This document shows positions 1 through 62,077 of a stretch of DNA of 64,000 bases, one piece after another; the stretch's first letter is position 1; each line of letters begins with the position of its first letter. The notes beneath the pieces were generated by a model that did no database searches, had not been told where the DNA came from, and was given only the letters and a program-made list of their open reading frames with translations. Source of the stretch: Escherichia phage GoldenSnicker; sequence record OR896832.1; one strand, given 5' to 3'. The position numbers and the translations under genes were made by a program.

Positions 1-977
1 CATATAATTTAAACACTGTCACTGTTAAACTATCGGTTGATTCGAAATTAATTGCAAGGGAACGTGATTTAATTAATTTTGATGCGACTAAGATCTATTA
101 TGGTAACGTTCTTGATACGTTGGTCTTCCGAAGTAAAGATGAGCCTACCATTTTTGTTAATGGCAGAGAAGGTCGTTTTTATCACACCAACAATAAACCA
201 ACTAAAGCCGATGTTGGACTAGGTAATGTCACCAATGATGCGCAGGTTAAACGTGCTGGTGATATTATGGAAGGTAACTTGCAAGCGCCTAGAATGTTGG
301 CGACAAACGATCCTGCTGGTCCTAATGAATTGGTTCGTTTGAGCTACTTTGAGAGAAAATCAATGGTAGCAAATCCAACCATCATTGGAAACGTTGATTG
401 GAACACTCTTATTAATCGCGGTATCTATCGTGTGGAAAATGCTGGGTCGGGTACTAATAAACCGTCTGATAGCTATTATAACGGCGTTTTGATGGTATAT
501 CGCCCAGAAGATGCGGTCGGTACTCGTCGAATTGTTCAGGTGTATTATCCTGAATCTATTGACCATCCGATGTGCTGGCGTTCGTGTTCTAATGAATCAT
601 GGACTGCATGGAACTATGTAGATCACCGTAAATTGGCTGATATTCGCTATGTTAACGTAACTGGCGATACCATGACAGGACCGTTAACTGTTCCGGCTGC
701 AAATGGCGTTAGAACAGCTAAAACTAACTATAACGGGGATAACTGTTATGCGGCGTTAAGCGGTGCTGATGGTACTGCTATGATTCACCGCATTAGTGAT
801 ATTAAAGGGACCGAAAAGCTGGGGATCACCCACGACTCAAAGGTCGTGTTTTTCCGTTCTAGAAACAATACTCAAACCGTGGACCGCTATCAGCTTTATC
901 ATGAAGGTAATAAACCTACTCCGGCTGATGTTGGCGCGGTTCCACTTAATGCGGTGATTGATTTTGGTACTTTCTAA
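1..977 (+). CDS. long tail fiber protein, gp36-like (5' partial; frame open to window start)
   Basis: Frame of ORF 120..977 has no stop back to nt 3 (track start is an internal TTG); NKPT-x-ADVG motifs shared with downstream gp37; immediately upstream of gene 37. Confidence 0.6.
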   Translation, partial: YNLNTVTVKLSVDSKLIARERDLINFDATKIYYGNVLDTLVFRSKDEPTIFVNGREGRFYHTNNKPTKADVGLGNVTNDAQVKRAGDIMEGNLQAPRMLATNDPAGPNELVRLSYFERKSMVANPTIIGNVDWNTLINRGIYRVENAGSGTNKPSDSYYNGVLMVYRPEDAVGTRRIVQVYYPESIDHPMCWRSCSNESWTAWNYVDHRKLADIRYVNVTGDTMTGPLTVPAANGVRTAKTNYNGDNCYAALSGADGTAMIHRISDIKGTEKLGITHDSKVVFFRSRNNTQTVDRYQLYHEGNKPTPADVGAVPLNAVIDFGTF

Positions 978-981
978 TTTT

Positions 982-1010
982 AGCGGGGATTATCTCCCCG
1001 CTTTTCTAAA
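982..1010 (+). terminator. stem-loop/terminator-like element between gp36-like gene and gene 37
   Basis: 8-bp perfect stem AGCGGGGA-ttatc-TCCCCGCT followed by TTTTCTAAAT. Confidence 0.5.
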
Positions 1011-1047
1011 TAATATTATTCTAATAACCGTTTAAGGATTTTATAAA

Positions 1048-3951
1048 ATGGCAGATTTAAGCAGAATCCAATTTAAACGTACTAGCACTAAAGGCCGTCG
1101 ACCTGATGCTGGTACGATGAATCCGGGGGAATTGGCAATCAACCTTGCGGATCAATATCTTCTTACTAAAAATGATTCCGGTGCTATTATCAATTTAAGT
1201 TGTCCTCCGGTTTATGACAGCGATGTTACAATGGCGGGTAAGGTTAAAGGAAATAATTATATTTTAAGTAAAACCGCTAATTATTTTGAAGACCAAACCG
1301 CGCGAGATCTTAATTATTTTGGTGCGTTTCGACCGAATAATGCTGATGGTTGGTCTAACTTGATTCTGAACATTCCTCATCCCAGCGGTAAAGCACACGG
1401 TCGCGGGTTTGAATTTGAATATGGTTCTAGTTCCTCTCAGGTTAAAACCTATGGCTTTGATAAGGATGGTAACAAGAGATTCAGCTTTCGCATGTATCAC
1501 GAAGGTGATAAACCTACTCCCTCAGAATTGAACGTCTATAGCAAACAAGAAATTGACCGTATGTTTGTTAAGAACGTTAAAATGTCCACTCCTTCCGGTG
1601 AAGCAACCCGTGGTTATTTTAAAATTGCATCCGCAATGATCCCGCAGAGTGGTCGGATGGCGTTTCTGCGAATCTATGGTGGGAACGGATTTAATGTTAA
1701 CTCCTACGATCAGGTGGATTTCCTTGAAATTGTGATTCGTAGTGGTAATAATAACCCTAAAGGCGTTAGTATTGCTGCATATCGTCGAAATTCTTTGAAC
1801 GTCCATGAAGTATTTGCAATTAATACTTCCGGTGATAACTATGACATTTATGTTAACTATGGTCGCTTCACCGATAACGTTATTGTAGAGTTTGGAAAAA
1901 CTGTTGATGTTGCATTGACTGTTCACGATGTTCCTGAATTTTCGGCGACTAAACCAGAAACCGGAACTAAATTTGATGCTCGTGTTATTACCATGTTCAA
2001 CACCGAAAACAAAGCAGGAACGTTGATGTTTGATAATAACTCACAAGCAACCTATGATATTGTGAGCCTTAGCAATGCACCTGATAATAGCCGAAATTAT
2101 CTGCGTAAATTCCGTAGCAAAGCGAATGAAACAATATGGCATGAAACTGTTCAAGGTGATGTGTATCGTTTGGCTACTGGTTCCACCGACCAAAAAGAAG
2201 TATTAAAAATTGTTGGTAGTGATGGTTTATTTGTCAATAGACTTCATCTGCAAGGCAATAACGCGATTCGTATGTGGCGTCCTACTGGTTGTAGTAACTA
2301 TTTTGAATATATGGATCAGCGAGACGGGGCTAATAAACGTCAAGGGTGGTTTGGTTTTGGTTCTACAGAAACCAACGATTTTCAATGGTATAGTGACGAA
2401 GGTAAAAACTTTGTTAAGCTAGAAGCAAGTGGTCAAGTATCTTTAAGCGCAGGTGCAACCAAAATTGTATACACTAATGGTCAATATGTAGCTGCCAATT
2501 CTGATGCATACCGTATGATCTTTGGTAATTATGGTGCATTCTGGCGTAATGACGGCACTAAAGTTTATCTTATGTCTACTGCCGAAAATGATAGATTTGG
2601 TGGCTGGAATGCCTATCGTCCATTCATTTATGATTTAACTTCCGGTAACGTTCAATTAGGCGGTGATGGTAACGAAGATGCATTAACGTTAGAAAGTGCT
2701 TCTCGTGCCGCTCGCTTTAGTAATGACGTTTACATTAAGAAAGGGCTTTTGACTTTCGACGCTGGACGATTAGGATCTCGTGATTTCTTTAAAATCAACC
2801 ATTGGGGTGATAGCAATAACGCCCGTGATAACATTTTGCAGTTTGAAGACAGTCAGGGCGCACATTTTACCACTGAACGTGCTATGGGTACTGGTAACAT
2901 AACAGCACGTTTTAAAGGCTTTGTTCGTGTAGAATCTGGCGAAATTGCATTTGATGCTAATCGGGGGTCGCAGTCTCAATTTACCTTACACACATGGGGT
3001 AACGAGCAACGCAAACAGGTTTTTGAATGTAAGGATGCTACAAGTTATCACTGGTATACTGAACGTACTCAGGGTGGCACTGGACCTATTCTGTTCTGTA
3101 TGGCTGGTAGTCTAAACGTTGGTAGCAATATCACAACAACTGGTGCTGATATTACGTTTAAACGCGCTGGCAATAAGCACATCTGGTTTAGAGATCCAGA
3201 CGGTTTAGAGTTGGGCTTGATGTATTGCGATGACGCTGGTGTTATTCGCTTCCGTGGTCAGAAACAAGCCCAGGCGTGGAAATTTGCAGATAAAATGATC
3301 CAGTTGGAATCTGGTACTGTATCTGGTGGCGGTAATGGCCTGATTCGTGGTGAAGTTGCTGGCGGTAGTTGGGCTAGCTGGCGTGACCGTGCTGCTGGCC
3401 TTATGGTTGGGTGTCCTCAATCAACCGATTCCGCTCATAACATCTGGAAAGCTACTCATTGGGGTAAATATCACATCGCAGCAATGGGTGTACACGTTCC
3501 TAGCGGTACTATCGGTAATGCTATAGCTCGCCTAAACGTTCATGACGCCAACTTTGAATTTAGCGCCTCCGGTGACATGTCGGCAGGGCGTAACGGTTCG
3601 TTTAACGATGTTTATATTCGTTCTGATACTCGCCTTAAAATCAATAAGGAAGAGTATAAGGAGAATGCCACCGATAAAGTTAATCGCTTGACGGTATACA
3701 CCTATGACAAGGTTAAATCTTTAACCGACCGTACTGTCATTGCTCATGAAGTTGGTATTATTGCTCAGGATCTTGAAAAAGAATTGCCGGAAGCCGTAAC
3801 AACTTCTAAGATCGGCGATCCTGATAAGCCAGAAGAGATCTTAACAATTTCTAACTCTGCTGTCAACGCTCTTTTAATTAAGGCGTTTCAGGAAATGAGC
3901 GAAGAACTTAAAGCCGTTAAAGCTGAACTAGCGGAACTTAAAAAGAATTAA
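1048..3951 (+). CDS. 37: long tail fiber distal subunit gp37 with C-terminal intramolecular chaperone-like domain
   Basis: 967 aa; N-terminus MADLSRIQFKRTSTKG..GELAINL matches T4 gp37 N-terminus; C-terminal ~110 aa (..VIAHEVGIIAQDLEKELPEAV..ALLIKAFQEM..coiled coil) resembles S74-type auto-cleaving chaperone domains; RBS AAGGA. Confidence 0.88.
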   Translation: MADLSRIQFKRTSTKGRRPDAGTMNPGELAINLADQYLLTKNDSGAIINLSCPPVYDSDVTMAGKVKGNNYILSKTANYFEDQTARDLNYFGAFRPNNADGWSNLILNIPHPSGKAHGRGFEFEYGSSSSQVKTYGFDKDGNKRFSFRMYHEGDKPTPSELNVYSKQEIDRMFVKNVKMSTPSGEATRGYFKIASAMIPQSGRMAFLRIYGGNGFNVNSYDQVDFLEIVIRSGNNNPKGVSIAAYRRNSLNVHEVFAINTSGDNYDIYVNYGRFTDNVIVEFGKTVDVALTVHDVPEFSATKPETGTKFDARVITMFNTENKAGTLMFDNNSQATYDIVSLSNAPDNSRNYLRKFRSKANETIWHETVQGDVYRLATGSTDQKEVLKIVGSDGLFVNRLHLQGNNAIRMWRPTGCSNYFEYMDQRDGANKRQGWFGFGSTETNDFQWYSDEGKNFVKLEASGQVSLSAGATKIVYTNGQYVAANSDAYRMIFGNYGAFWRNDGTKVYLMSTAENDRFGGWNAYRPFIYDLTSGNVQLGGDGNEDALTLESASRAARFSNDVYIKKGLLTFDAGRLGSRDFFKINHWGDSNNARDNILQFEDSQGAHFTTERAMGTGNITARFKGFVRVESGEIAFDANRGSQSQFTLHTWGNEQRKQVFECKDATSYHWYTERTQGGTGPILFCMAGSLNVGSNITTTGADITFKRAGNKHIWFRDPDGLELGLMYCDDAGVIRFRGQKQAQAWKFADKMIQLESGTVSGGGNGLIRGEVAGGSWASWRDRAAGLMVGCPQSTDSAHNIWKATHWGKYHIAAMGVHVPSGTIGNAIARLNVHDANFEFSASGDMSAGRNGSFNDVYIRSDTRLKINKEEYKENATDKVNRLTVYTYDKVKSLTDRTVIAHEVGIIAQDLEKELPEAVTTSKIGDPDKPEEILTISNSAVNALLIKAFQEMSEELKAVKAELAELKKN

Positions 3952-3992
3952 GGAAACTCCCAGGGAAGGGGAACTACTAAGGAGAAACGGCT

Positions 3993-4232
3993 ATGGTCTA
4001 TAATATCGTCATTGGTGCTTTGTCTAATTTCGGAATGAAATTATTGTCAAAGTTAATTAGTGAAAAGATGCTCACTAAAATTTTCTTCTATTGCGCTCGT
4101 CGTCTTGCGGCTTATACCAATACGCCAATTGATGATCGTTTTGTGGAAGAACTTTATAAGGAGTTTAATAAAGATCAGTCAGAAGATAGTAACGAGCAAG
4201 ATAAACCTAGTGATAGTCAACTACCTAAATAA
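3993..4232 (+). CDS. hypothetical small protein (hydrophobic N-terminus, acidic C-terminus)
   Basis: 79-aa ORF with AAGGAG RBS 9 nt upstream; sits between gene 37 and holin where T2/T4 carry gene 38. Confidence 0.5.
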   Translation: MVYNIVIGALSNFGMKLLSKLISEKMLTKIFFYCARRLAAYTNTPIDDRFVEELYKEFNKDQSEDSNEQDKPSDSQLPK

Positions 4233-4265
4233 GAGTACACTGTCATAGTTATCTTAGGGCATTAT

Positions 4266-4922
4266 ATGCAAGTTTCTGAAAAAGGGAAAGACTTTGCTAT
4301 CTCAAATGTCCTGCGCGCTATTTTCACAACTAAAAGCACGGAGTTGCTCGTACTTCGTGTTTTTGCTGCCGTCGTGTTGTCCATATTGGCATTTGTCGTT
4401 TATAGTAAAAACGAGTTATTTGCGCTTTATAAAGAGACTCGTTATGAGACTTATGCTCACATTCTCCAGGTAGAGAAAGACCGCAATTTTGATAATGCAG
4501 CACAGGAGCAGTTACAGATAGTTCATGTGTCGGCTGATGCCGATTTTTCTGCTGTTTTTAGTTTTCGTCCGAAAAACCTAAACTATTTTGTTGATTTGGT
4601 GGCATATGAAGGAAAGCTACCACACACAATCGATGAAAAAAATTTAGGCGGATTCCCTATCAATAAAACGAGTGAAGAATATCGTAGGCATCTTTTAGGT
4701 AAATCATATTTTACCGATAAAGATTTCCAGTATATTCCATCAAGAGAAAAGAAATTAGAGAATATCGATATAGGTTTCATGTATTCTTGTCCTATATTCA
4801 ATCTCGATAATGTCTATTCTGGTAGTATCGCCATTTCATGGAAGAATAAACCGGATATTGACATTGAGAATTTAGATACTCTTTGCAATCAATCTGCCAG
4901 AATCCTCGGAAGGATTAGATAA
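4266..4922 (+). CDS. t: holin T
   Basis: 218 aa, single N-terminal TM segment; EQLQIVHVSADADFSAVFSFRPKNLNYFVDLVAYEGKLP nearly identical to T4 holin T; same length as T4 T. Confidence 0.92.
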   Translation: MQVSEKGKDFAISNVLRAIFTTKSTELLVLRVFAAVVLSILAFVVYSKNELFALYKETRYETYAHILQVEKDRNFDNAAQEQLQIVHVSADADFSAVFSFRPKNLNYFVDLVAYEGKLPHTIDEKNLGGFPINKTSEEYRRHLLGKSYFTDKDFQYIPSREKKLENIDIGFMYSCPIFNLDNVYSGSIAISWKNKPDIDIENLDTLCNQSARILGRIR

Positions 4923-4928
4923 CTTAAA

Positions 4929-4960
4929 GGGGAAGCCTTTCGGCCTCCCCTTCTTTTTAT
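4929..4960. terminator. bidirectional rho-independent terminator between convergent holin and minus-strand operon
   Basis: Hairpin GGGGAAGCC-TTTC-GGCCTCCCC followed by TTCTTTTTATT on + strand; A-rich on other side. Confidence 0.7.
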
Positions 4961-5205
4961 TGGCGCATAGACGCGCCTGAATCGCATTTTGACGCTGTAT
5001 GATGAAAACAGGTAGCGTACCAGTCATTGGCTTGTTTGTCTTCGTCAGAAAACGCGTAATTGCGTTGTATGCCGTTTTCTACTTTGACCAGTGCAATAGC
5101 TGTTTCTGGAAGATCAATCAATCGGACAAAATCACCATCTTCCCACTCTACACGAGCAATATCATAGCCCATCTCAAAGTATACAATCGCTTGTTCTAAT
5201 TTCAT
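4957..5205 (-). CDS. hypothetical protein (82 aa)
   Basis: Track ORF; last gene of minus-strand operon, followed by terminator 4929..4960. Confidence 0.5.
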   Translation of the reverse strand: MKLEQAIVYFEMGYDIARVEWEDGDFVRLIDLPETAIALVKVENGIQRNYAFSDEDKQANDWYATCFHHTASKCDSGASMRQ

Positions 5206-6919: not shown

Positions 6920-7207
6920 TTATTTTCGGTTGTGGTCGCGATATGTTTTAAAATATCCCTCGTACCACGGTAAAATATCTGGATTTTTACCACTATACAG
7001 ACCTTTAACCATCATGTCAATAAGGCCATCTGGTGTTTGATAGTTTCCAGCTTTTATAAGCTCTCTGATTAAAATCTCTCTGTATATGTCTTTCGGATCT
7101 TCGTAATCAACTTGTATTGTGGTTGTGGTCTCATTCAATTTGGTTTCTGGAGTATCTCGCATTGCATCCCACCAATCTTTTGTGACCTTCATGTTATTGA
7201 ATTGCAT
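6920..7207 (-). CDS. hypothetical protein (95 aa)
   Basis: Track ORF in co-directional array. Confidence 0.5.
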   Translation of the reverse strand: MQFNNMKVTKDWWDAMRDTPETKLNETTTTIQVDYEDPKDIYREILIRELIKAGNYQTPDGLIDMMVKGLYSGKNPDILPWYEGYFKTYRDHNRK

Positions 7208-7218
7208 AATTTAACCTC

Positions 7219-7977
7219 TTACTTGCAAACGTATTGATCTACATCAATTGCGCCACCGAATGTAGGGTGACGTTTTTCAAATCGAATAGTTCCGTCGTTT
7301 GGTTCGAAAACGGAGTATTCATATAGATCTTTCTTGCCAACATTCTTATAAAACCCGCCTTTAGTCATAACGGTTTCTTGTACGTTTGCTTTGTGTACGT
7401 TGTATTCATCAATGTATACAAAATCAACCATCTTCCCATTTTTAATGGTTACTTTAAGATCCCCTGGCTTGTTTCCATATTTTGCATACAGTGGAGCTTC
7501 TTTAATTTTGGTGGAAATTCCATCTTTCATACTCCACTCATAACGAACGGTGCATTGATAGGTAAAAGTTTCGACCTTCTGTTCTTCCACCATTTTTTCT
7601 TCCTGTTTCGGTTGTTCTTCGTCAACCTTCACAGAAGTCTCTGAATCGCTTTCTGACGCGGTTTCTTCTTTAGGTAATACATTCATCAAGTTTTGGATTT
7701 GAGCGTTGTATACAGCCTCCAGTGGCTGAATCTGCCCGATATTGATCATTGTATCACGAACAGTTTTATTCCAGTTGCGTTGCTCTTGTTTCAGAGACGG
7801 ATCAATCTTAACAGCCTTAACATATACTTCATGAAGTTTAGAATCCAGTGCGGAGATTGACTCATTAGCACAAATAAACTTCTCTGATTTTGTAGTGGCT
7901 TTAGCGCAATCAAAGGACGCAGCATTAGCACCGAAAGCAGTAGCGGAAAGAACGATAGCAGCGATAATGTTTTTCAT
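7219..7977 (-). CDS. secreted protein with N-terminal DUF1311/LprI-like (lysozyme-inhibitor-like) domain
   Basis: Signal peptide MKNIIAAIVLSATAFGANA; FDCAKATTKSEKFICANESISALDSKLHEVY..QEQRNWNKTVRD fits C..A.T..E..IC..L..LD..L..Y..QR.W...RD pattern; first gene after promoter 8014..8042. Confidence 0.6.
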   Translation of the reverse strand: MKNIIAAIVLSATAFGANAASFDCAKATTKSEKFICANESISALDSKLHEVYVKAVKIDPSLKQEQRNWNKTVRDTMINIGQIQPLEAVYNAQIQNLMNVLPKEETASESDSETSVKVDEEQPKQEEKMVEEQKVETFTYQCTVRYEWSMKDGISTKIKEAPLYAKYGNKPGDLKVTIKNGKMVDFVYIDEYNVHKANVQETVMTKGGFYKNVGKKDLYEYSVFEPNDGTIRFEKRHPTFGGAIDVDQYVCK

Positions 7978-45337: not shown

Positions 45338-45847
45338 TCAAATAATTTTCACTGGAATACTATTAACAATCTTGTATTGTACTTGATTGTCAGACCCCCG
45401 CCACGGCTTCTTCGTTGGCATATCTTTAATATAACGCCCATCGATGAACATGTCAACTGATTCTACAATTTTTCTTTGCTCATCATTCAATTGGTCAAGG
45501 GTATAACCAGACCATAGCCAAATATCTTTATTTGGCATCCATGATTTTACTTCATCGATGATCCGCTGTACACCCTTTAAATTGCGTTTATACAGTGGAT
45601 CGCCACCTAAGAATGTTAGCCCCTGAATAAAATCAGGTCTAAGCAGGTCCAGAATCAATCCCATTGTATCATCGGTGAATGGTTCCCCGTTCTTAGGATT
45701 GAGTAGGCTAGCATTAAAGCAACCATCACATGCGTGTGAACATCCGGTAACGTAAAGGGAGACTCTCACTCCCTCACCGTTAACCATATCACAATCTTTA
45801 ATATCGGCATAGCGTAGTTTGCCGTATGTATCAGAACTCATATTCAA
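45338..45847 (-). CDS. nrdG: anaerobic ribonucleotide reductase activating protein NrdG (radical SAM)
   Basis: 169 aa; radical-SAM cysteine cluster GCSHACDGC; upstream of nrdD. Confidence 0.85.
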   Translation of the reverse strand: MNMSSDTYGKLRYADIKDCDMVNGEGVRVSLYVTGCSHACDGCFNASLLNPKNGEPFTDDTMGLILDLLRPDFIQGLTFLGGDPLYKRNLKGVQRIIDEVKSWMPNKDIWLWSGYTLDQLNDEQRKIVESVDMFIDGRYIKDMPTKKPWRGSDNQVQYKIVNSIPVKII

Positions 45848-45983
45848 TTACCCCGAACTCGTTTACAATCTGCGCTTTATAGTAACCACCGCGAGATGCT
45901 AATAGATAAGCTGGGCTTAGGTATTCGTATTCACGGATTTCTACTTGTGCGTTTTCAGTTTCCCAAATCAGTAAAGTCCACAT
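45831..45983 (-). CDS. hypothetical protein (50 aa)
   Basis: Start at ATG preceded by CAGGAGAATCAAAT; downstream of promoter 46026..46054. Confidence 0.45.
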   Translation of the reverse strand: MWTLLIWETENAQVEIREYEYLSPAYLLASRGGYYKAQIVNEFGVIEYEF

Positions 45984-46025
45984 ATTTGATTCTCCTGTAA
46001 AGTTGTATCTCGTCTTGATGAATAT

Positions 46026-46054
46026 AGTATAGGGGATCTCGCGATCCCCGTCAA
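46026..46054 (-). promoter_or_regulatory. sigma70-type promoter (TTGACG-17-TATACT) with palindromic GATC-containing spacer
   Basis: Minus-strand TTGACGGGGATCGCGAGATCCCCTATACT. Confidence 0.65.
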
Positions 46055-46058
46055 GCAT

Positions 46059-46592
46059 TTATTTTAACTTTTTTCGAATGTATTCAGACCATTCCTTCCC
46101 TGTCATTTCGGACCCGTTCTGGAAACTGAAATATTCATACGGCATCGAGTCAAGATAAAACAGGATCATACATCGCGCCATATAATACCAATCACGATTA
46201 AAGTAAACTACGTTATCACCAGTACCTTCAACCCCTTTATCATAACCATCGCGGGTACGGGCGACCCATTGAATAGTATCATTTTTCTCGCGGATCGTAA
46301 CAGGTTCCCAATATCCAGCACATCCAGCATGACCACACGAACAAGTCAGGAAATATTGACCTTTTGCTTTGTTGTCATCCCATTCACGATGGATTGGTTC
46401 GATCTCGTGAAACAGTGCTAAGCAATCATGATTATGCAACACTGGCTTACCATCAATCAATGCATGGAATGTATACAAACGACCAGTAGACAAATAGCTA
46501 TCCTCACGCTCAACCAGTTCAATAGCAATCTTTTTAGCTCGTTCTTTGTGTCGTTGTGCTTTACGCTTACGGTTTAATGATTTCATAGTCAC
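46059..46592 (-). CDS. hypothetical protein (177 aa)
   Basis: Track ORF; basic N-terminus, Cys/His-rich core. Confidence 0.5.
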   Translation of the reverse strand: MTMKSLNRKRKAQRHKERAKKIAIELVEREDSYLSTGRLYTFHALIDGKPVLHNHDCLALFHEIEPIHREWDDNKAKGQYFLTCSCGHAGCAGYWEPVTIREKNDTIQWVARTRDGYDKGVEGTGDNVVYFNRDWYYMARCMILFYLDSMPYEYFSFQNGSEMTGKEWSEYIRKKLK

Positions 46593-58085: not shown

Positions 58086-58865
58086 TTACACGCGAGCACC
58101 GTAGATCGTGCCTACTTTATCCCAGCGAGGGGCATTGCCAGTAACAGCCTTACCAGCCGCTCCGCCATTATATTCCGATCCCTGTCCACGGATATTACAT
58201 TTACCACCAGCGCCACCAGCATCACCACCGTTACCGCCATTATATACACCGTTGACAGACCCTTTACCTGGAGCGGAAATAGTACCAGCAGTAGCACCCT
58301 GTTCCATATTAGCAGACCCACCAGCAGCGCCAAATGGACGACCGCCGCCACCTCCAAAAGTCAATTTCATTTGTGGAAAAGGAGACCAGTATCCTCCGCC
58401 ACCACCGCCACCGCCACCGCAAATAGCGCCGTTATTTGTGATGCGTAAGCGTGTGCCTATACCGTTGTTAATTGCATTACCACCAGCACCACCAGCGGAG
58501 TTATTGCCACCATTACCACCACGCCCCCAAACATGAACACCTGCATTAATGATCAATGTTACATATTCGTTTGTTAACGAGCTAGGGAAGTCAAGACAAG
58601 GAACGCCAGTAGATTGGGAAACAATATTACCCGTGATAGTAATTACTACAGGAGTAGATCCTTGTGCTTTCATCCAGTTAATAAGAGTGTCTTTATTGTA
58701 AGAGTTACTAGCACCAATGCTATAATGAATCTCTTTAGAGCGTCCGACCATCGCGGACATATACGCCGGACGACCTAAGCGAACAGCTTGCATTGCGGCG
58801 CTCATCCACCGTTGACCAGTCTCGGACACAGCAGATGATCCTACCCATCCAGAAGATATTGCCAT
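58086..58865 (-). CDS. 38: gp38-like glycine-rich receptor-binding adhesin (T2/T6 type)
   Basis: 259 aa; N-terminus MAISSGWVGSSAVSETGQRWMS.. and glycine-rich motifs (GRGGNGG, GGGGGGGGG, GGGGGRPFG, GGNGGDAGGAGG) ending ..TIYGARV, matching recalled T2 gp38 architecture; RBS GAGGAAATTTT. Confidence 0.7.
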   Translation of the reverse strand: MAISSGWVGSSAVSETGQRWMSAAMQAVRLGRPAYMSAMVGRSKEIHYSIGASNSYNKDTLINWMKAQGSTPVVITITGNIVSQSTGVPCLDFPSSLTNEYVTLIINAGVHVWGRGGNGGNNSAGGAGGNAINNGIGTRLRITNNGAICGGGGGGGGGYWSPFPQMKLTFGGGGGRPFGAAGGSANMEQGATAGTISAPGKGSVNGVYNGGNGGDAGGAGGKCNIRGQGSEYNGGAAGKAVTGNAPRWDKVGTIYGARV

Positions 58866-61445: not shown

Positions 61446-61453
61446 TATTTATA
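61446..61453 (-). promoter_or_regulatory. T4 late-promoter-like TATAAATA box
   Basis: Minus-strand TATAAATA (plus tatttata) 33 nt upstream of ATG at 61412. Confidence 0.4.
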
Positions 61454-61480
61454 ATCTGGGGCTTTATTTATGATTAACTC

Positions 61481-62077
61481 TTATTTGGTAGTACCGTCAA
61501 TAAAATGTTTACGGCACACAGAGACATATTTATCCTCTGCACCAACTTCTATTTGAGCACCATCGCGAATAACATTACCCTCTTTATCTACACGAAGGAC
61601 CATTGTTGCTTTCTTGCCACAATGACAAATACCCTTCATTTCGACCAGTTTATCAGCAAATGCCATTAATGCCGCAGATCCTTCAAATAGATTGCCCTGA
61701 AAGTCGGTGCGAAGGCCATAGCACAGTACAGGGATATTTGCATCATCGACAAGCGCACACAAGCCTAAAACATGCTCTTTAGTCATAAATTGGGCTTCAT
61801 CTACAAATACAGCATCAGGACGCCATCGATCCGGTCTACGCTTACCTAACGATTCACGATAAACCAAATCGAAAAGATCATCCGATTTAGTGAAGGTGAT
61901 CGCTGGAGCACTTAGACCAATTCGGGAAACAACTTCACTTTCTGAATCTCGATTATCAATCGCTGGCTTAAGAATTAATACTCGCATATCACGTTCGGTA
62001 TAGTTATAAGCACTTTGTAACAGAGAAGTTGATTTGCCAGCGTTCATAGATGCATAGTAGAAATATAGTTGCGCCAT
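61481..62077 (-). CDS. tk: thymidine kinase
   Basis: 198 aa; Walker A MNAGKST, C-terminal CHCGKKA zinc ribbon; size as T4 Tk. Confidence 0.88.
   Translation of the reverse strand: MAQLYFYYASMNAGKSTSLLQSAYNYTERDMRVLILKPAIDNRDSESEVVSRIGLSAPAITFTKSDDLFDLVYRESLGKRRPDRWRPDAVFVDEAQFMTKEHVLGLCALVDDANIPVLCYGLRTDFQGNLFEGSAALMAFADKLVEMKGICHCGKKATMVLRVDKEGNVIRDGAQIEVGAEDKYVSVCRKHFIDGTTK

Follow-up and report, generated by a model that had tools for sequence, protein, structure and literature searches.

The distal long-tail-fibre and lysis gene block of Escherichia phage GoldenSnicker: the gp37 chaperone domain, a displaced gene 38 and a homologue of PM2 P18

Previous work on the Krischvirus RB49 showed that gp37 sheds a self-cleaving chaperone and that gp38 then attaches to the fibre as the receptor-binding protein (PMC9569957; PMC3157838). 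In the published RB49 work, the fibre is capped by a gp38 monomer, and gp38 binds OmpA or O-antigen. Efimov et al. mapped RB49 host-range changes to gp38 residues 230-231 (PMC9569957). The displacement of gene 38 is also a known feature of the RB49 arrangement (PMC3157838). The T4 fibre differs from that of GoldenSnicker in that T4 gp37 lacks an S74 domain and forms the tip itself, and the product of T4 gene 38 is an unrelated protein, an assembly chaperone. Only the T4-type gp37 combines the lack of S74 with the formation of its own tip; in T2/S16-type fibres the S74 domain and the gp38 adhesin belong together and are not alternatives.

The second described system that bears on this locus is the lysis protein P18 (gp l) of phage PM2. 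P18 is needed for disruption of the outer membrane at lysis (PMC9502842; PMC6356626). Homologues of P18 were listed in 2007 for phages including PaP3, Felix 01 and RB49 (PMC1950889). PM2, PaP3, P-SSM2/4 and S-PM2 have been listed as spanin-less, Krischviruses have two-component spanins of the T4 type, and the Felix O1-like phages also have two-component spanins (PMC6139136). As to novelty, the chaperone on gp37, the displaced gp38 and the named family of the 79-aa ORF discussed below were all published between 2007 and 2022.

Identity of the genome and layout of the locus

The window examined here is the whole 64,000-nucleotide stretch of Escherichia phage GoldenSnicker DNA that was analysed (OR896832.1). 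When positions 1-5200 of the window were used in a megablast search, 84 phage records were matched, the closest relatives being the Krischviruses RB49, JSE, Phi1, GEC-3S, TB34, PHB13 and others, with 90-96% nucleotide identity and the same gene order. Judged by these relatives, the window belongs to an RB49-like phage, i.e., a Krischvirus. The features of the locus are collected in Table 1, and the coordinates given for gene 37 and the 79-aa ORF in a preliminary description of this DNA proved correct. The counterpart stretch of RB49 is annotated 34-35-36-37-RB49ORF251w/'dc5'-t. We regard it as very probable that the window carries a standard RB49-type distal long-tail-fibre and lysis gene block, with a self-cleaving gp37, a gp38 cap and a P18-homologous 79-aa ORF.

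Table 1. Features of the distal long-tail-fibre and lysis region, with positions in the window
Feature	Coordinates	Strand	Basis
Gene 36, long-tail-fibre distal connector, 3' part (5' end outside the window)	1..977	+	phrog_16472 tail fiber, E 1.4e-205; collinear with RB49 gene 36
Gene 37, 967 aa	1048-3951	+	ORF
Gene 37, predicted mature part, aa 1-858	1048..3621	+	phrog_1699 'long tail fiber distal subunit', E 3e-182
Gene 37, predicted C-terminal S74 intramolecular chaperone, aa 859-967 plus stop	3622..3951	+	Pfam PF13884, E 9.8e-11
79-aa ORF (RB49ORF251w / 'Dc5'), PM2 P18 (gp l) family	3993..4232	+	phrog_402, E 5.2e-20
Gene t, T4-type holin, 218 aa	4266..4922	+	Pfam Phage_holin_T, E 4.5e-61; 49% identity to T4 t
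Gene 38, T2/S16-type long-tail-fibre adhesin, 259 aa	58086..58865	-	Pfam GP38 and Gp38_N; PDB 6F45_D

In a late-promoter motif search, TATAAATA was not found near genes 37 to t. Two CTAAATA sites are present, one upstream of gene 37 and the other upstream of t; CTAAATA is the published late motif of Aeh1.

The C-terminus of gp37 and the gp38 adhesin

The N-terminus of gp37 had been described as T4-like, and residues 1-71 are indeed 46% identical to T4 gp37 (E 6e-13). The likeness to T4 extends to a Gp34_trimer-like domain in residues 418-528 (Pfam Gp34_trimer, E 1.4e-29) and to the gene order 36-37-...-t. The last 110 residues or so had been said to resemble the self-cleaving chaperone of endosialidase-type fibres, and this was borne out by several lines of evidence. 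Over residues 859-918, Peptidase_S74 (PF13884) scored 42.2 bits, the Pfam cut-off being 22 (E 9.8e-11), and a match so far above that cut-off is not due to chance. The domain occupies the last 109 residues, Ser859 to Asn967, at the extreme C-terminus of the fibre protein, and it begins with S859-D-T-R-L-K864, an SDxRxK motif. Lys864 was invariant in an alignment of 20 homologues, and Ser859 nearly so (at least 90%). From the endoNF and T5 literature, we take the S74 dyad to consist of a Ser at the cleavage site and a Lys five residues downstream. The gp37 segment also aligned with S16 gp37 (PDB 6F45_A), including its SDRRIK region.

The predicted structure pointed the same way. An AlphaFold2 model of gp37 residues 810-967, made as a monomer, had a pLDDT of 79, with values of 86-93 across most of the domain. 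In Foldseek, the sole meaningful PDB matches of this model were 7DC3, the ICA domain of MyRF (E 4e-5, TM 0.60-0.68), and the endosialidase and GA-1 chaperones 3GW6 and 3GUD (probability 0.92-1.0), so that the S74-like fold anticipated earlier was in fact predicted. Both the sequence and the model indicate an intramolecular chaperone of the endosialidase type (S74) at the end of gp37. With the chaperones of endosialidase K1F, GA-1 gp12 and T5 pb1 (3GW6, 3GUD), the gp37 domain shares the C-terminal position, the Ser-Lys dyad, the predicted fold and a long C-terminal helix, whereas its identity to S74 chaperones of known structure is only 9-15% in the Foldseek alignments.

The preliminary description had further noted that another ORF, and not gene 38, comes after gene 37, and among the ORFs of the window none between genes 37 and t is a gene 38. 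From the chaperone, it had gone on to argue that gp37 folds without gp38 or gp57A and itself forms the receptor-binding tip. These arguments did not stand, in that a gene for a gp38 of the T2/S16 type lies elsewhere in the window (Table 1). The product of this gene matched GP38 (PF05268) with E 6.3e-73 and Gp38_N (PF21721) with E 3.9e-18; both the attachment domain, Gp38_N, and the glycine-rich GP38 domain are present, and the product aligned end to end with S16 gp38 (6F45_D, E 2e-50). The collinear gene of RB49 (45,367-46,143) is annotated '38; similar to T2 and RB69 gp38 adhesin'. The distance from gene 37 to gene 38 is about 54 kb in both the window and RB49, gene 38 being not directly downstream. 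A location directly 3' of gene 37 is typical of gp38 adhesins, but it is not essential to the family. The fibre tip of T2, T6 and S16 (6F45) thus has the same two parts, i.e., a gp37 end that is an S74 domain with SDxRxK and a gp38 made of Gp38_N and the glycine-rich GP38 domain, and the difference lies in the position of the GoldenSnicker gene, which is far from gene 37, on the opposite strand and near rI and tk, as in RB49. Small genes with no assigned function surround it.

Given a complete gp38 adhesin gene within the same window, it is highly improbable that gp37 folds through its own chaperone with no need of gp38 or gp57A and uses its own C-terminal region as the receptor-binding tip. 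The S74 domain on which this explanation builds is real, and gene 38 does not adjoin gene 37, but the S16 gp37 end, which is of the same kind, carries gp38 (6F45), and in RB49 the receptor-binding protein is gp38 (PMC9569957; PMC3157838), to which the host-range mutations map. Independence of gp57A is likewise not implied by the gene content, since gene 57A is annotated in the RB49 record; in a tblastn search with T4 gp57A, no Krischvirus was among the matches listed (60 sampled).

The maturation that we propose for the GoldenSnicker fibre follows RB49. Gp37 would be made as a 967-aa precursor, and its last 109 residues would serve as an S74-type chaperone aiding the folding of the trimeric fibre. 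As family membership suggests, the chaperone would then cut itself off just before Ser859 by means of the Ser859/Lys864 dyad; for GoldenSnicker gp37 this cleavage is predicted from homology and from published statements. The exposed gp37 end would be capped by one molecule of gp38, and gp38 would bind the receptor, as published for RB49. In T5, by contrast, the fibre tip binds the receptor itself, whereas the released end of GoldenSnicker gp37 is proposed to be capped by a separate adhesin.

The 79-aa ORF and the P18 family

A hydrophobic N-terminus and an acidic tail had been reported for the 79-aa ORF, and both were seen here. In an AlphaFold2 model, helices span residues 2-21, 24-41 and 45-66 and are followed by a disordered acidic tail; the N-terminal helix is hydrophobic/amphipathic, with a maximum Kyte-Doolittle hydropathy over 19 residues of 1.31, which is below a clear transmembrane level. 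The small size of the ORF, and the two nested starts annotated for it in RB49, might suggest a spurious or decaying reading frame. We find this scarcely credible in view of the conservation of the ORF, with 31 invariant positions among Krischvirus-like homologues 64-92% identical to it, the confident helical model, and the strong ribosome-binding site, AAGGAG, found 8 nt upstream. Further, about 390 phage records, which span many taxa, contained relatives in a tblastn search against annotated phages.

The ORF had also been said to have no assignable function, a statement that must now be replaced by a family assignment. The ORF matched PHROG 402 with E 5.2e-20, and PM2 gp l belongs to the same PHROG (E 8.2e-14). 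When PM2 gp l (51 aa) was compared with the profile of the 79-aa ORF family, hhalign gave a probability of 95.8% and E 6.9e-9. The precomputed Pfam label of close homologues, 61-92% identical to the ORF, is PF26925, Phage_PM2_Gpl; our own Pfam scan, for which the Pfam copy was one without PF26925, gave only a sub-threshold TPR match. A BFVD fold search with the model found uncharacterised relatives only. On these profile comparisons, the 79-aa ORF is classed as a homologue of the PM2 lysis protein P18 (gp l). It is probably unrelated to fibre folding. Like P18, its product is small and helical and has the conserved core E...T.T..DD, and its gene lies next to that of a lysis protein with a single TMD, where a late operon ends. 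It differs from P18 in length, 79 aa versus 51 aa, and in having the acidic tail as an extra.

Gene neighbourhoods and a possible role at lysis

The genes that P18-like homologues travel with are mixed, and the family is not tied to S74 fibres. In a metagenomic T4-like contig (L003), a 524-aa gp37 lacking S74 is followed by the homologue and then by holin T. Felix O1-like phages have a fibre lacking S74, then the homologue, and then an overlapping gene for a 'putative holin' with an N-terminal TMD and a coiled coil. A putative single-TMD holin adjoins the homologue in Moogle, mistaenkt and an Erwinia phage; the 'holin' labels in the Felix O1-like phages (Ounavirinae) are putative, and the PHROGs concerned have no assigned function. 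In PM2, gene l overlaps the holin-like gene k, whose product has the same N-terminal-TMD topology, and in Pseudomonas phage Bjorn the homologue adjoins gp61, a protein of similar TMD topology. The homologue of Vibrio phage 1.090.B lies 3 nt after a lysozyme-like gene and far from structural genes. Three phages have the homologue in the structural module, namely Salmonella phage 7-11, Cronobacter phage A24 and Aeromonas phage LAh_6; phrog_2941, 'virion structural protein', adjoins it in these three and in Bjorn. In sum, a lysis gene lies beside the homologue in GoldenSnicker (holin t), PM2 and Vibrio phage 1.090.B, but not in 7-11, A24 or LAh_6.

Weighing the homology to P18 and the lysis-type neighbours against the structural-module neighbourhoods and the existing spanins, we rate a lysis accessory as the likeliest function, and we give about even chances to the 79-aa protein acting at lysis alongside the adjacent holin T. 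This role is argued from homology, and the protein compared, P18, has 51 aa and comes from a virus of a very different kind. Whereas a phage of the GoldenSnicker type has spanins and an endolysin, PM2 is among the phages listed as spanin-less; because Krischviruses already have spanins, an extra disruptor of the outer membrane would be redundant. A tblastn search of the window with the T4 spanins PseT.2 and PseT.3 found nothing.

Two other roles were weighed against the same neighbourhoods. The 79-aa protein might be a virion or tail-fibre assembly accessory and not a lysis protein at all, as could be argued from the homologues that follow the distal fibre gene in Krischvirus, the metagenomic contig and the Felix O1-like phages, and from those beside phrog_2941 in the structural modules of 7-11, A24, LAh_6 and Bjorn. 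We think this unlikely: PM2 has no tail fibre and yet has P18, with a lysis phenotype, and the Vibrio phage 1.090.B homologue sits after a lysozyme-like gene, away from structural genes. Further, the fibres that precede the homologues have unrelated C-termini, with or without S74, and in the Pfam scan the 79-aa ORF had no match to the Tfa, gp38 or gp57A families. It also seems improbable to us that the 79-aa protein acts on the adjacent single-TMD holin as a regulator or helper, i.e., that it affects the timing of lysis and does not attack the outer membrane. Such a role would fit the presence of spanins in Krischviruses and the repeated placement of the gene by one for an N-terminal-TMD protein, often with overlap, as in PM2 k/l, Moogle, the Erwinia phage and Bjorn, and next to holin T here. 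The TMD partner proteins, however, come from unrelated families, and the published phenotype of PM2 P18 is one of outer-membrane disruption and not of timing.

Returning to action at lysis alongside holin T, a more specific and rather doubtful version is that the P18-like protein works with single-TMD holins, here the T4-type holin T, as a lysis factor that does not depend on spanins. In that case it would be part of a 'distal fibre - P18 - holin' block that is mobile and closes the late operon, common to Krischvirus and the Felix O1-like phages and related to PM2 k/l. If this were true, GoldenSnicker would be a T4-like coliphage able to disrupt the outer membrane by two routes, and lysis in some phages listed as spanin-less, such as PM2, PaP3, P-SSM2/4 and S-PM2, could be accounted for by P18 homologues.

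For the biology of the Krischviruses, the self-cleaving gp37 chaperone and the displaced gp38 adhesin underlie current work on host range, and gene 38 at 58 kb, not gp37, is where the receptor specificity of GoldenSnicker should be looked for. For the 'hypothetical protein' encoded after gene 37, a suitable label would be PM2 P18-like putative lysis protein.

Motif searches at genes 37, t and 38

The sequence CTAAATA is rarer than expected in the 64 kb, with three occurrences versus about 13 expected, and two of these occurrences precede a start codon by 35-36 nt, one that of gene 37, for the distal long-tail-fibre subunit, and the other that of the holin gene t. In the literature this sequence is the late-promoter motif of Aeh1 and not that of RB49, so the sites here are sequence matches only. 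A TAAATA-type late-promoter motif was looked for directly upstream of the adhesin gene, 38, and none was found; the closest such motifs on the same strand are three ATAAATA sites at ~61.45-61.53 kb. Gene 38, which encodes a late structural protein, is surrounded by small minus-strand genes without assigned function, with tk and rI upstream of this region.

Past the far side of the holin gene, and ~2.3 kb from it, is RB49ORF260c, which matches the Pfam 'lysozyme inhibitor' LprI (DUF1311) with an E value of 3.1e-5, barely above the cut-off.

Features and coordinates
Feature	Position	Strand	Remark
CTAAATA, gene 37 side	window 1006-1012	+	upstream of gene 37 start codon
79-aa ORF	window 3993-4232	+	equivalent to RB49 (L001) 7030-7269
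CTAAATA, t side	window 4225-4231	+	overlaps 79-aa ORF stop codon
RB49ORF260c, 252 aa	window 7219-7977	-	Pfam LprI match
Gene 38	window 58086-58865	-	
ATAAATA, three sites	61446-61533	-	around tk end, before rI
P18-like/partner loci of other phages	L008 3186-3560; L014 2701-3036; L018 2670-2918; L015 9780-9941		

Start site and relatives of the 79-aa ORF

The RB49 record holds two nested CDSs for the ORF between gene 37 and t, of 79 and 65 aa, the shorter named 'dc5'. Of the two, the 79-aa form is favoured, both by the ribosome-binding site and by how distant homologues align at the N-terminus.

The P18-like gene, a homologue of this ORF and of PM2 gp l, has a neighbour that it overlaps or adjoins in four unrelated virus groups; this neighbour encodes a protein with an N-terminal TMD and, after it, a coiled coil. 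The partners are PM2 gp k, the Ounavirinae putative 'holin' (phrog_4038) and Bjorn gp61 (phrog_8140); their topology is alike, with no common sequence family detectable among these three. The P18-like profile has a conserved T.T..DD segment, and P0044, a 196-aa protein of the representative library, matches it in six separate stretches, suggesting that P0044 is a relative of the family built of tandem repeats.
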